Of a stretch of DNA of 50,175 nt, positions 26,088 through 28,787 are shown in pieces (the stretch's first letter is position 1; the number at the start of each line of letters is the position of its first letter). The notes under the pieces were generated by a model. It was not told the origin of the DNA and did not search any database. It saw nothing but the letters and a program-made list of their open reading frames with translations. The position numbers and the translations under genes are program-made. The DNA comes from Candidatus Helarchaeota archaeon (lineage in GTDB: Archaea; Asgardarchaeota; Lokiarchaeia; Helarchaeales; RDOG01), in assembly GCA_029838215.1 (NCBI GenBank), contig JALGVI010000051.1, positions 1 through 50,175 of the forward strand, written 5' to 3'.

Positions 26088-27395
26088 TTAGTCAAAGCCA
26101 AGTACTTGTTTATACCCTTCCAGATCAAAGAACCCGTGTCCGCTATGGTTGTATATGATGGTTTTTGCTTCTCCTGTTTCTTTACACTTCTTCGCTTCCA
26201 TGATAGCGGCATGTAAGGCGTGTGCTGTTTCAGGTGCTGCAACTAAACCTTCAACCTTGGCGAGAAGTTGAGCGGAAGCAAATATTTCTTCCTGCGGATA
26301 TGCTTGGGATTCGATTACCTTCTCATGAGCCAATAAAGAAACCAAGGGTGCTGCACCATGATAACGAAGACCACCTGCATGAATGGGTGGTGGAACGAAA
26401 TCATGTCCTAGCGTGTACATCTTTGCAAGTGGTGCATATCCTGCAGTATCTCCTAAATCGTATCTGTATTCGCCCTTGTTTATTGAAGGACAAGCCGTTG
26501 GTTCTACTGCTATTATGCGAAGGTCTTCAAATCCATCTTCTTTCCGTAGCTTCTTTCCAATGGATGGGAACGAAAATCCTGCAAAATTTGAGCCTCCACC
26601 CACGCAACCAATCATTATATCGGGCTTGATTTCATATTTCTTCATCTGTAAGAGCACTTCCTGCCCAACGACCGTCTGATGCAAAACCACGTGGTTCAAA
26701 ACGCTTCCAAGCGTGTATTTAGTCCCATCATTTTTTATTGCATGTTCAACTGCTTCGGAAATGGCTATGCCCAAAGAACCAGGATGGTTGGGATCTTTTT
26801 CAAGGAGCTTCTTTCCAAAATCCGTTTTATTCGAAGGACTGGCATCCACGTTTGCGCCATACACCTGCATGAGATATTTACGATACGGTTTTTGTTGGTA
26901 AGAGATCCTCACCATGTATACTTGAAGCGTTATTCCCATTAATGCACACGAATAACTAAGAGCTGATCCCCATTGTCCTGCTCCAGTTTCCGTCACGAGT
27001 TCCGTGCATCCTTCTTGTCTTGCATAATATGCCTGAGCAATTGCGGTGTTTGGCTTGTGACTTCCTGGCGGGGAAAGATCCTCGCGTTTCAAATAAATTT
27101 TTGCAGGAGTTTTTAATACTTCTTCAAGTCGTTTAGCCCGATACATGGGCGAAGGACGTCCCAGCCGATAGTACGCCGTTCTAATTTCCTCGGGTATGTC
27201 GATGTACCTCTGATTACTGAGTTCCTGCTTCACGCACTCAATGGGGAACAAAGCCATCAATTTTTGCGGCGACATCGGCTCATTGTTTGACGGATCCAGA
27301 TATATCGGAAATTCCACTGGGGAATCTACCAAAAGATTATACCATTGCTTTGGCAATTCTTCCGGTTCCAATGTCAGTTTGATTGTTTCTTTCAT
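26088..27395 (-). CDS. trpB2: TrpB-like PLP enzyme (tryptophan synthase beta, type 2)
   Basis: GSHKPNTA PLP lysine, TETGAGQWG, GCVGGGSNFAG, IHAGGLRYHG, SGHG. Confidence 0.95.
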   Translation of the reverse strand: MKETIKLTLEPEELPKQWYNLLVDSPVEFPIYLDPSNNEPMSPQKLMALFPIECVKQELSNQRYIDIPEEIRTAYYRLGRPSPMYRAKRLEEVLKTPAKIYLKREDLSPPGSHKPNTAIAQAYYARQEGCTELVTETGAGQWGSALSYSCALMGITLQVYMVRISYQQKPYRKYLMQVYGANVDASPSNKTDFGKKLLEKDPNHPGSLGIAISEAVEHAIKNDGTKYTLGSVLNHVVLHQTVVGQEVLLQMKKYEIKPDIMIGCVGGGSNFAGFSFPSIGKKLRKEDGFEDLRIIAVEPTACPSINKGEYRYDLGDTAGYAPLAKMYTLGHDFVPPPIHAGGLRYHGAAPLVSLLAHEKVIESQAYPQEEIFASAQLLAKVEGLVAAPETAHALHAAIMEAKKCKETGEAKTIIYNHSGHGFFDLEGYKQVLGFD

Positions 27396-27423
27396 GTTTC
27401 TTCATACCTCCAATAGTCTTTTT

Positions 27424-27445
27424 AAAAACTTAAAGGAATTTTAAG
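27424..27445 (-). terminator. Weak hairpin plus U5 between leader ORF and trpB2, candidate attenuator terminator
   Basis: Minus strand cttaaa-attcc-tttaag-ttttt. Confidence 0.35.
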
Positions 27446-27484
27446 ATTTTCCATTAGAGTTGTCCCGTGCAAGTCGTTAGCAAA

Positions 27485-27589
27485 TCACTGCCAACGCCAG
27501 CACCACTGCCAGCGCCAAAAAAGAGAGTCCTCTAAAGTGGTAGCTAACGAGGAAAAAAAGCCGACTCGGATCTTCTTTACATTAGACAT
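27485..27589 (-). CDS. Putative Trp-rich leader peptide (trpL-like), 34 aa
   Basis: MSNVKKIRVGFFSSLATTLEDSLFWRWQWCWRWQ*; five TGG codons in the last 10; stop 89 nt upstream of the trpB2 ATG. Confidence 0.8.
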   Translation of the reverse strand: MSNVKKIRVGFFSSLATTLEDSLFWRWQWCWRWQ

Positions 27590-27846
27590 GTTTTGCCGTG
27601 AGACACCGCCTACATTGCCTCGGTGTCCTATTCCAAAGAAAGTTAATCCCAGTCCAAGAGGGACAGCCTCATGTTCAAGTTCATTTTGGTTTACGATAAA
27701 AAGGATGAAACCTTTTTAGTATAAAAATCTTTTTTTATTTCAATATTTAAAATCAAACAAGTTTTAAGAATAGGTATAAATATCACGTTATGAGAAACTT
27801 GTTTTGTAATTAGTTTCTTGAAAAATCCCGATGAAGGAAATGCAAT

Positions 27847-28227
27847 ATGTCTGAAGATCATGGATCCGGATTAAGCCGACTTTTGGACGATTTTGAAAGA
27901 GATTCCGGCATTAGAGCATCTGCAATAGTAAGTAGGGATGGATTGGTCATGGCTTCAAAACTTCCCGCTGGAATTGATGAAGATACCGTTGCTGCAAATG
28001 CCGCAAGAATACTATTTCTCGGTGAAGCCACGGGAAAAGAACTTTCAAGGGGAAACCTGACCCAAGTTTTACTTGCATACGATGATGGGAGCATTGCACT
28101 TTCCGGGGCTGGTCCATATGCCGCCGTGATGGCTCTGGTTGACAAGGAATCGAAACTGGAATCTGGTGCAGTCCTATTCGCCATTAAAACATTGGCAAAT
28201 AAAGTACAATCCTTGCTAGAAGGGTAA
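27847..28227 (+). CDS. Roadblock/LC7 (MglB-like) domain protein
   Basis: GIRASAIVSRDGLVMAS.LP...DEDTVAA.AA.I..LGE...KEL.RG.L.QV. Confidence 0.92.
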   Translation: MSEDHGSGLSRLLDDFERDSGIRASAIVSRDGLVMASKLPAGIDEDTVAANAARILFLGEATGKELSRGNLTQVLLAYDDGSIALSGAGPYAAVMALVDKESKLESGAVLFAIKTLANKVQSLLEG

Positions 28228-28274: not shown

Positions 28275-28787
28275 TCACTCATCCTTGTACCATTTTTCTA
28301 GAAACGTCATTGCTCGGGATGTTGAAGTCTTTGGATTCAAAGCCAATACGTTATTAATGAAATCAGGATATTTGTCCCGATCCAAGTGATGCCCCTTCTT
28401 CATTTGGTTCAAGCACTTCCCCCACTCCTTGAAAATGGAGAATTTCATGGTATGCCACTTCTCTCTCTTCAGGAATTCGTAAAGGCGCAAGCAATTTCCT
28501 AATCCTTTTACCTCCAAGCGAATTCTCCCCAAGCCTTTAGCCTCAAACTCGACACTCCGAATTTGATGGTAAATCGGGTATACTTTTATTCCTGCGTCAA
28601 GAAACATACGGCGAATTTCTTCAAATATATCTAAATCAGCAAAAAATGAATTCAAGACGAAACTCGGACGCGGATAATAATTGTTCTTGCCACCATGTTT
28701 CTGTAATGAAATCGCAAAAGAACCCCGACCTTCAATGAAGCCAATCAACCATTTTTTATCCATTTTGATTACCGAATTTATAGCCAC
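28275..28787 (-). CDS. Free-standing single-motif LAGLIDADG family protein, probably nuclease-dead
   Basis: WLIGFIEGRGSFAISL...RPSFVL...GL..C..L..FL...K...F..W..C..M..G.HL; catalytic acidic position is Arg. Confidence 0.8.
   Translation of the reverse strand: MAINSVIKMDKKWLIGFIEGRGSFAISLQKHGGKNNYYPRPSFVLNSFFADLDIFEEIRRMFLDAGIKVYPIYHQIRSVEFEAKGLGRIRLEVKGLGNCLRLYEFLKREKWHTMKFSIFKEWGKCLNQMKKGHHLDRDKYPDFINNVLALNPKTSTSRAMTFLEKWYKDE

Follow-up and report, generated by a model that had tools for sequence, protein, structure and literature searches.

Leader-peptide control of amino-acid operons is a textbook bacterial mechanism. In the E. coli tnaC/Rho system and in mgtL-type leaders, the position of the ribosome on a short ORF decides whether a termination factor gains access downstream. 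TnaC senses excess free tryptophan at its stop codon, not a shortage of charged tRNA. In Bacillus, a stalled ribosome stabilises the ermC mRNA. The trpL type is found in E. coli, in the Rfam family RF00513 and in actinobacterial trp leaders (PMC1262725): a short ORF in the 5' leader carries clustered Trp codons just before its stop codon, the codon run lies within RNA secondary structure, the Shine-Dalgarno (SD) sequence of the first gene comes after a U-rich tract, and the regulatory codons alone are conserved. Bacillus TRAP attenuation instead relies on regularly spaced (G/U)AG repeats, with 2-3 nt spacers, in the trp leader RNA, and does not need translation. Post-initiation regulation is barely documented in archaea. 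A preliminary description of the locus studied here had remarked that leader-peptide attenuation was not an established mechanism in Archaea, and our literature search likewise found no archaeal precedent for leader-peptide control of amino-acid operons.

We analysed a stretch of 50,175 nucleotides from a Candidatus Helarchaeota archaeon (contig JALGVI010000051.1; hereafter the window), in which a short upstream ORF (uORF) rich in Trp codons precedes the gene trpB2. The features of this leader, from its 5' end to the gene, are as follows.

27695..27702, minus strand: TATA-like box TTTTTATC, candidate leader promoter (read from the sequence and inferred only)
27643..27657, minus strand: micro-uORF TTG-GAC-TGG-GAT-TAA (M-D-W-D-stop) with one Trp codon; translation not shown
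27602..27627, minus strand: GC-rich hairpin in the interval between the micro-uORF and the main uORF, -11.5 kcal/mol, z -2.6
27485..27589, minus strand: main leader ORF, ATG at 27589 and TGA at 27487-27485, 34 codons plus stop
27491..27517, minus strand: Trp-codon run, TGG first bases at 27517, 27511, 27505, 27499 and 27493, in strict W-x-W period
27467..27503, minus strand: stop-loop hairpin; 5' arm 27503-27488, spanning the last three Trp codons; loop with the TGA; 3' arm 27484-27467
27424..27445, minus strand: weak A/U hairpin CUUAAA-auucc-UUUAAG, then T5 (27428-27424), then A5; -3.0 kcal/mol, z -2.9
27406..27411, minus strand: trpB2 SD sequence GGAGGT, 10 nt ahead of the ATG
26088..27395, minus strand: trpB2, a stand-alone TrpB-like PLP enzyme, the presumed regulated gene

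The main leader ORF ends in W-R-W-Q-W-C-W-R-W-Q-stop. TGG makes up five of its last ten codons, and exactly 89 nt separate its stop codon from the trpB2 ATG (27395); both figures had been given in the preliminary description and were recovered when the sequence was re-read. The frame stays open in the 5' direction up to 27715, without an ATG, GTG or TTG ahead of 27589; a CTG at 27652 occupies the position of the ATG in the leaders of Asgard families f6 and f19. No SD sequence is present ahead of the main uORF. The leaders of relatives, like this one, have strong SD sequences before the downstream gene (GGAGGT, GAGGTGA). The trpB2 product matches NCBIfam NF009057 with 669 bits (cut-off 366). 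No tRNA genes were found in the window.

Trp-codon density alone does not single out this ORF: in all six frames, the genome holds 11 stretches with at least five TGG among ten in-frame codons. At least three Trp in the last 12 residues were found in 3 of 6277 short ORFs of the genome, these being ORFs that overlap no long ORF and have one at most 260 nt downstream. The trpB2 leader has five Trp, and the other two have three each and lie ahead of unrelated genes. No convincing leader ORF with a C-terminus rich in His, Leu or other cognate codons was seen in the same genome, and a DNA repeat search of the genome found no second copy of the trpB2 leader.

The pattern recurs across Asgard archaea. 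At least three in-frame TGG codons within a stop-free span of nine codons were present in 31 of 70 regions upstream of Asgard TrpB2 genes, compared with 1 of 70 antisense regions and 14 of 1400 shuffles (1%). A short upstream ORF ending in at least three Trp codons preceded 19 of 30 TrpB2 loci of relatives; in five more of the 30, the upstream ORF had two Trp codons, which were not always terminal. Among additional TrpB2 loci, 28 of 37 had a Trp-rich upstream ORF, and such ORFs also occur in families f6, f7, f19, f21, f25 and f30. The relatives are non-independent samples. None of about 22 non-Asgard archaeal TrpB2 loci had a W-rich uORF, and a few bacterial TrpB2 loci in a wider TrpB2 sample do have one.

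A chance origin of the run was considered and rejected on the antisense and shuffle controls together with the genome-wide count of short ORFs.

In all 59 distinct leaders compared, the stop codon lies 0-3 codons past the last Trp (TAA in 29, TAG in 20, TGA in 10). The residues between the Trp vary (R, Q, P, H, C, A), with synonymous codons; among relatives there is no fixed N-terminal sequence, and peptide length ranges from 13 to about 60 residues. Within the ORFs of family f4, which conserve an ATG 8-10 codons upstream, indels are of 3 or 6 nt; in aligned relatives they are multiples of three, save in two degenerate leaders. Two marks of a trpL-type leader are present: an ORF rich in codons for the end product, and conservation of the regulatory codons while the remaining peptide varies. 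The preliminary description had proposed a trpL-like logic and suggested looking for conserved Trp-rich uORFs with a variable remainder before trpB2 and trp genes across Asgard archaea. That search was run and found such uORFs, and the proposed logic is supported by the conservation, the start codon, the position of the stop codon and the frame-preserving indels.

The alternating W-x-W pattern, also pointed out before, was confirmed and is widespread: in the 59 leaders, 145 of 170 distances between successive Trp codons equal two codons. Here the Asgard leader, with up to five alternating Trp codons, differs from the tandem Trp codons of the trpL type. The base after TGG is C in 76% of cases (background 15%); this UGG-C bias shows a constraint, at the level of the RNA or of decoding context, beyond mere Trp coding. 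The bias accompanies the W-x-W pattern and was absent from the preliminary description.

The leader is not confined to trpB2. In the same genome, the trpDCFBAEG operon has a paralogous leader ending in W-P-W-C-W-R-N-stop, and W-rich leaders occur at trpD-led operons in f4, f7, f13 and f19. In most f4 genera with a trpB2 leader, TrpD was not found with the query used; most genomes with a trpD operon have the leader there instead. Genomes contain one or two matches to the f4 Trp-run motif, almost all of them at TrpB2 leaders. Of the extra matches, four proved to lie before TrpD-type genes and a few were left unexamined; a reversed control pattern gave one match in 81 genomes. The putative element is linked to tryptophan-synthesis function rather than to one gene. 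At the trpE-led Asgard operons of f22 and f11 the W-rich tail is absent and only a single-Trp uORF is seen, along with a clear palindrome and TATA. If the proposed control is real, it would mark TrpB2 as the tryptophan-responsive salvage enzyme of lineages whose searched genomes yielded no TrpD. Owing to its divergence from the trpB2 leader, the trpD leader escaped blastn and was recognised by reading the sequence.

The Trp run also forms part of an RNA helix. The predicted stop-loop hairpin has a folding energy of -21.7 kcal/mol (z -2.1 against dinucleotide shuffles) or -20.1 (z -4.2 against mononucleotide shuffles). Most relatives have an equivalent hairpin with compensatory changes (alignment pairs 121/138 and 122/137; 150/163 and 151/162), and a closing helix in these alignments is G-C in 10, A-U in 8 and G-U in 3. 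Pairing of the Trp run with the sequence past the stop codon meets a further mark of the trpL type, a regulatory-codon region within a conserved RNA helix; unlike in that type, the hairpin made by the Asgard Trp run itself carries the stop codon in its loop. Together with the W-x-W/UGGC periodicity, this arrangement may reveal a sensing geometry unlike the bacterial one. RNAalifold, run separately on two f4 subgroups that differ in hairpin register, found compensatory changes in the stop-loop hairpin and, in one subgroup, also in a helix between the start codon and the Trp run and in further helices that extend downstream as far as the trpB2 SD. That covarying helices reach the SD argues for a single continuous leader RNA. 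When 45 f4 leaders were pooled, RNAalifold gave no usable fold because the hairpin register varies among subgroups.

Other folding results were weaker. In a swap test, the native hairpin partner of the trpB2 leader beat every swapped partner; the test as such discriminates only modestly (-11.2 vs -9.4 kcal/mol), because all Trp runs resemble each other. The hairpin of the paralogous trpD leader was no better than shuffles (z -0.16). Long-range folds of whole leaders of this type vary among relatives and were not relied on. With a ribosome modelled on the Trp run, the unpaired probability of the SD changed by a mean of -0.01 over 33 leaders and by +0.03 for the trpB2 leader in the window. ermC-type sequestration of the SD was rejected, the folding models giving no consistent change in SD accessibility.

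Towards its output end, the leader departs from the trpL type. A consensus terminator scan found no canonical terminator between the leader ORF and trpB2, only the A/U hairpin with its T5, and the GC-rich stem with U-run expected of an intrinsic terminator ahead of the first gene is lacking. Constrained folds and inspection by eye gave no antiterminator, and no mutually exclusive 2:3 and 3:4 pairing, conserved across families. In archaea an oligo-U tract alone may suffice for termination. The A/U hairpin with T5A5 is a candidate attenuation site, and could alternatively be the TATA box of a proximal promoter; T5-6/A5-6 motifs are also found in the genome's own trpD leader and in f6 and f19 leaders. 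An Rfam search of the window returned no family at gathering score, RF00513 included, and only chance-level matches at E up to 10, while control genomes matched. Besides its archaeal host and this lack of sequence or structure match, the leader differs from the trpL type in its termination setting, archaea terminating transcription at oligo-U tracts and by FttA, not by hairpin terminators or Rho. With tnaC and mgtL leaders it shares a U-rich untranslated spacer past the leader ORF and, by analogy, would share the gating of a termination factor by ribosome position. Rho is absent from archaea, whose FttA belongs to the CPSF73 nucleases (PMC11616081).

An additional feature with no trpL counterpart is the one-Trp micro-uORF, which in the window can alternatively be read from an ATG at 27675 as a 9-codon ORF. 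Its motif TTGGACTGGRATTAA recurs in the genome's own trpD leader, in the trpB2 leader of a family relative (G001) and in f7 leaders, and a variant, TTGGAATGG, is found in f6. In G001, a hairpin of differing sequence (GAACGCCGC/GCGGCGTTC) takes the place of the GC-rich hairpin. By inference only, the TATA-like box at 27695..27702 would set the 5' end of the RNA near 27672-27677. A further TATA-like box lies at 27719-27728, and f4 relatives have a conserved box, AAnTTTATAAGTT, about 50 nt upstream of the uORF ATG.

On balance we think it probable that the 34-codon ORF is translated as a leader peptide, that ribosomes on it gauge how much charged tRNA-Trp is available, and that trpB2 is thereby controlled in cis. 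The sensor part of this proposal is well supported, albeit by comparative evidence alone: neither translation of the uORF nor a transcript shared with trpB2 has been shown, and there are no expression data. When Trp is scarce, the ribosome would wait on the UGG codons, the hairpin would be held open and the leader would re-fold, and RNA polymerase would get past the U-rich tract (the T5 behind the weak hairpin) and transcribe trpB2. When Trp is plentiful, the ribosome would clear the ORF, the hairpin would re-form, and transcripts would end at the U-tract, intrinsically or through FttA/aCPSF1. The micro-uORF at the 5' end of the leader would probably be a further point at which Trp is sensed or ribosomes are loaded. 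The genome encodes an FttA orthologue; FttA prefers U-rich nascent RNA, and it has been proposed that a coupled ribosome excludes it (PMC11616081). Termination at the U-tract is only our best guess at the output; the alternatives are mRNA stabilisation and a separate promoter, both still possible. Counting against the proposal are the lack of an SD before the main uORF, the missing terminator and conserved antiterminator, the promoter-like placing of T5A5, the unchanged SD accessibility in the ribosome models, the UGG-C bias, the modest swap test and the trpD-leader hairpin. If the proposal holds, translation-transcription coupling would be used for regulation in archaeal relatives of eukaryotes, and the leader would offer a natural cis-element for probing FttA-dependent termination and ribosome-polymerase coupling.

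The same ribosome sensor could have another output, the stalled ribosome blocking 5'-to-3' exonucleases of the RNase J/aCPSF2 type, and so stabilising the mRNA downstream, or altering translation of trpB2. Every piece of sensor evidence fits this equally; it is in keeping with the failure to find a canonical terminator or antiterminator, and it makes an alternative RNA fold unnecessary. Simple unmasking of the SD is countered by the unchanged accessibility in the ribosome models, and pure stabilisation would leave the conserved covarying leader structure and the U-tracts unexplained, so that we do not favour this output but keep it in mind. A different output again would follow if the uORF unit were a separate small transcript, acting in trans or otherwise, with trpB2 expressed from a proximal promoter under a DNA-binding regulator. 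T5A5 (27419-27428), with its centre some 26 nt ahead of the trpB2 ATG, has the archaeal TATA geometry for a leaderless transcript; the genome's own trpD leader and f6 leaders have comparable motifs about 30 nt ahead of the start, f4 leaders have a TATA-like run past an inverted repeat about 60 nt before trpB2, and the palindrome and TATA of the f22 and f11 trpE-led operons point the same way. A precedent is Sinorhizobium, where the trp attenuator RNA and its peptide are reported to act in trans (PMC7298713, PMC7968998). Yet the strong GGAGGT lies between T5A5 and the ATG and would be left off a TATA-driven leaderless transcript. The f4 palindrome and the next hairpin keep their pairing through G-U and compensatory changes, as an RNA helix would, and without exception the element sits immediately before trp genes, in cis and in a constant orientation. 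A genome-wide profile of TATA positions, which bears on whether T5A5 is a promoter, was flat and uninformative. We regard a separate transcript as unlikely.

Two further explanations dispense with the sensor. If the UGGC-NN repeats were an untranslated RNA motif bound by a TRAP-like protein or by tRNA-Trp (anticodon CCA, or a T-box-like UGGN:NCCA contact), the reading frame would be incidental. The strict 6-nt periodicity, the preference for C after UGG, the resemblance in form to TRAP triplet repeats and the lack of an SD before the main uORF all suit such a motif. What makes it improbable is the coding evidence: an in-frame stop just past the last UGG in 59 of 59 leaders, with all three stop codons in use, and in f4 a conserved ATG and frame-preserving indels. 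The Asgard repeats, unlike those of TRAP, are UGG codons inside a conserved ORF, no match to TRAP (MtrB, PF02081) was found in the genome (94% complete), although a B. subtilis control matched, and neither a T-box nor any other Rfam family was matched. The ORF might also encode a functional Trp/Arg-rich peptide, for example a membrane-active one, its proximity to trp genes being secondary. Synthetic (RW)n peptides are antimicrobial and membrane-active, and the W-R-W-Q-W-C-W-R-W-Q tail is amphipathic and cationic; but with Trp codons alone conserved, while N-terminus, length and intervening residues vary, and with all examined motif matches preceding trp genes, we give this idea very little credence.

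A broader form of the leader-peptide proposal is tentative, and we would not be surprised to see it fail: Asgard archaea may have lineage-wide, modular, ribosome-read amino-acid sensors, independent in origin of bacterial attenuators, that act through archaeal/eukaryote-type machinery (FttA/CPSF73-like termination or uORF reinitiation). Their components would be micro-uORFs with a swappable sensed codon, together with longer leader ORFs of W-x-W type set within a hairpin that holds the stop codon. Were this true, the archaea closest to eukaryotes would connect prokaryotic attenuation with uORF control of the eukaryotic kind. A micro-uORF reading M-G-Y-R-V-Trp precedes the trp operons of two families, and a near-identical M-G-Y-R-V-Leu lies before leuA in the same genome.

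The preliminary description had reported a Trp-rich ORF with five TGG among its last ten codons, 89 nt before the tryptophan-synthesis gene trpB2, and had read it as a trp leader peptide. The sequence confirms the ORF: its final ten codons encode W-R-W-Q-W-C-W-R-W-Q, and trpB2 starts at 27395 (minus strand), exactly 89 nt 3′ of it. The leader-peptide reading is supported: the Trp-codon ORF is conserved, specific to trp loci, apparently translated, and set within a conserved RNA fold. TrpB2 is a 435-residue TrpB-like PLP enzyme (NCBIfam NF009057; score 669 bits, cut-off 366). The upstream ORF (uORF) lies inside a 450-nt intergenic region between trpB2 and a divergent gene for a Roadblock/LC7 protein (27847-28227, plus strand), and neither Rfam nor ARAGORN gave a match in this leader region. 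Next to the Roadblock/LC7 gene is a free-standing 170-residue ORF (28275-28787, minus strand) that matches LAGLIDADG_1 weakly (24.7 bits). The features of the leader are as follows.

27702-27695, minus strand: TATA-like box, which would put the RNA start near 27675
27657-27643, minus strand: micro-uORF TTG-GAC-TGG-GAT-TAA, also nine codons if read from an ATG at 27675
27627-27602, minus strand: GC hairpin; a same-family relative has one of different sequence in this position
27589 (ATG) to 27487-27485 (TGA), minus strand: Trp-rich uORF, 34 codons
27503-27488 paired with 27484-27467, minus strand: stop-loop hairpin, its first arm covering the last three Trp codons, with the TGA in the loop
27445-27424, minus strand: weak A/U hairpin and T5, 3′ of the Trp hairpin and followed by A5 and then the Shine-Dalgarno sequence (SD)
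27411-27406, minus strand: SD GGAGGT upstream of the trpB2 ATG

TGG density by itself does not make the uORF unique, since a count over the six frames of the 3.6-Mb genome gives 11 stretches of ten in-frame codons that contain five or more TGG. Position is more restrictive. Among 6277 short ORFs that overlap no long ORF and have one at most 260 nt downstream, only three have at least three Trp within the final 12 residues; the uORF has five, and the remaining two have three each and precede unrelated genes. The decisive evidence that the uORF exceeds chance comes from sequence comparison across relatives. We obtained TrpB2 loci from 40 relatives and assessed 30 of them: 19 carry an upstream short ORF with at least three Trp codons at its end, and another five carry one with two. 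In f4, the best-sampled family (Promethearchaeota/Lokiarchaeia type), 28 of 37 additional loci have a Trp-rich short upstream ORF. TrpB2 was present in 210 of 301 genomes of a phylum-wide Asgard sample, where such ORFs also occur in families f6, f7, f19, f21, f25, and f30. A stop-free nine-codon window with at least three in-frame TGG was found on the sense strand of 31 of 70 upstream regions, on the antisense strand of one of 70, and in 14 of 1400 shuffles. The relatives are non-independent samples; the families with a Trp-rich upstream ORF are many, and their TrpB2 proteins share only 52-66% identity with the one encoded in the window.

We examined 59 distinct leader tails (loci L009-L144) for coding signatures. 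In all 59, a stop follows 0 to 3 codons past the last Trp codon, with TAA (29), TAG (20), and TGA (10) all in use. Between Trp codons the encoded residue changes (R, Q, P, H, C, A), with synonymous codons in use, and W-x-W spacing holds for 145 of 170 successive Trp codon pairs. In the f4 leaders an ATG lies 8-10 codons upstream, indels within the ORF are of 3 or 6 nt, and where the single 2-nt deletion occurs, the Trp codons and the stop have been lost too. Stop placement, stop diversity, synonymous variation, and frame-preserving indels are signatures of translation, as far as sequence alone can tell. TGG is followed by C in 76% of cases in these tails versus 15% in long ORFs of the window's genome, giving UGGC-NN repeats and implying an additional constraint at the level of RNA or decoding context. 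This bias may come partly from UGGC:GCCA pairing in the stop-loop hairpin and is otherwise unexplained; besides that pairing, codon-context effects on decoding and a binding site are possible causes.

The window's stop-loop hairpin has a predicted energy of −21.7 kcal/mol (z −2.1 against dinucleotide and −4.2 against mononucleotide shuffles), and a hairpin of this layout is predicted for the majority of 55 leaders. When partners were swapped between subgroups, pairing was weaker than with the native arm (−9.4 versus −11.2 kcal/mol, p = 6e-4), and no swapped partner matched the native energy of the window's leader. RNAalifold on 14 f4 leaders predicted the hairpin with compensatory changes (one pair is G-C in 6, A-U in 4, and G-U in 2), a helix joining the start-codon region to the first Trp codons, in which a synonymous CAG-to-CAA change is compensated on the opposite strand, and three further helices extending almost to the trpB2 SD, their pairing kept through G-U and double changes. 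The stop-loop hairpin was recovered again in 23 other f4 leaders, together with a closing helix around the entire uORF (G-C 10, A-U 8, G-U 3).

We infer that a ribosome awaiting Trp-tRNA on the Trp run would hold the hairpin open and alter the leader fold. The output of such a switch is not established. We favor premature termination at the U-tract, which stalling would relieve, because U-tracts come after the structured domain in all leaders of the window's own type, because the genome encodes an orthologue of the termination factor FttA (aCPSF1), and because FttA targets U-rich nascent RNA, from which a coupled ribosome is proposed to exclude it (PMC11616081). Against termination, neither a canonical terminator in this leader nor a conserved antiterminator was found, and a T5A5 motif ~26 nt upstream of the trpB2 ATG occupies the position where a leaderless transcript would have its TATA box; the predicted structure, continuous from uORF to SD, speaks for a single RNA carrying both. 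Folding models gave no support for unmasking of the SD, and a simple alternative is that the stalled ribosome stabilizes the mRNA.

Bacterial trpL-type attenuators are closest in logic to the window's leader, in which no 2:3/3:4 hairpins or GC-rich terminator were found and which differs from them in its alternating Trp codons and stop-codon hairpin. It does not belong to Rfam Trp_leader and gave no T-box match, and no TRAP gene was found in the genome. Across 80 diverse TrpB2 loci, W-rich uORFs occurred only in two Asgard records (Candidatus Borrarchaeum weybense and a Promethearchaeota archaeon) and a few bacteria, and in none of the about 22 other archaeal loci. We found no report of archaeal leader-peptide attenuation in the full-text literature, whose coverage leaves out most subscription journals.

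A canonical trpD-C-F-B-A-E-G operon, preceded by a paralogous leader, lies on a different contig of the window's genome (G000).

G000:C86:26315-26461 (locus L116/L117), minus strand: paralogous Trp leader before the trpDCFBAEG operon

Its ORF ends L-E-W-P-W-C-W-R-N-stop ~90 nt before trpD, with a long T-rich tract and then the SD GAGGTGAT after the leader. The two leaders have in common a micro-uORF motif at the 5′ end, a W-C-W core with its UGGUGC paired to a post-stop GCAC motif, and a T-rich tract with an A-tract after it. Leaders rich in W are also found before trpD-led operons of f4, f7, f13, and f19. The query used detected TrpD in just 27 of 151 Asgard genomes. It was mostly not detected in f4 genera with a trpB2 leader; genomes with a trpD operon mostly have the leader before trpD instead, and a few have both. 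The f4 Trp run has a 15-nt core present in one or two copies per genome, nearly all matches lying at TrpB2 leaders; four extra matches precede TrpD-type genes, and a few others were left outside the check. The reversed pattern, used as a control, matched once in 81 genomes. Judged by this distribution, the leader tracks the tryptophan pathway rather than a single gene. TrpB2 alone seems to be retained in many Asgard lineages, perhaps for indole salvage, and there the leader precedes trpB2. At three f4 loci of one genus, g8 (L130, L138, L246), an unannotated ORF of ~80-110 residues without a Pfam match lies between the Trp leader and trpD, as the first gene of the operon.

The one-Trp micro-uORF at the leader's 5′ end is conserved in f7, in the same-family relative G001, and in the genome's own trpD leader, and f6 has a variant of it. 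The ATG of the long Trp-rich uORF is overlapped by the micro-uORF's TGG in f6 and f19 and by its stop in f7 (TAATG). Another micro-uORF (G000:C111:44407-44433, plus strand; M-G-Y-R-V-L-N-N-stop) lies 171 nt before a leuA match (44604), the genome's best LeuA homologue. Its first 15 nt are nearly identical to those of the pre-trpD micro-uORFs of two other genomes, G092 (L118) and G048 (L120), with one synonymous base differing in one of them; the sixth codon is TGG in these two versus CTC before leuA. This likeness suggests a putative modular sensor whose sensed codon can be swapped. The trpE-led operons of f22 and f11 (L225-L233) have a different type of leader, with a GTACA-N5-TGTAC inverted repeat, probably an operator, beside a TATA box, followed by GGAGG and then a short ORF carrying just one conserved Trp codon (start-R-Y-S-L-W...).
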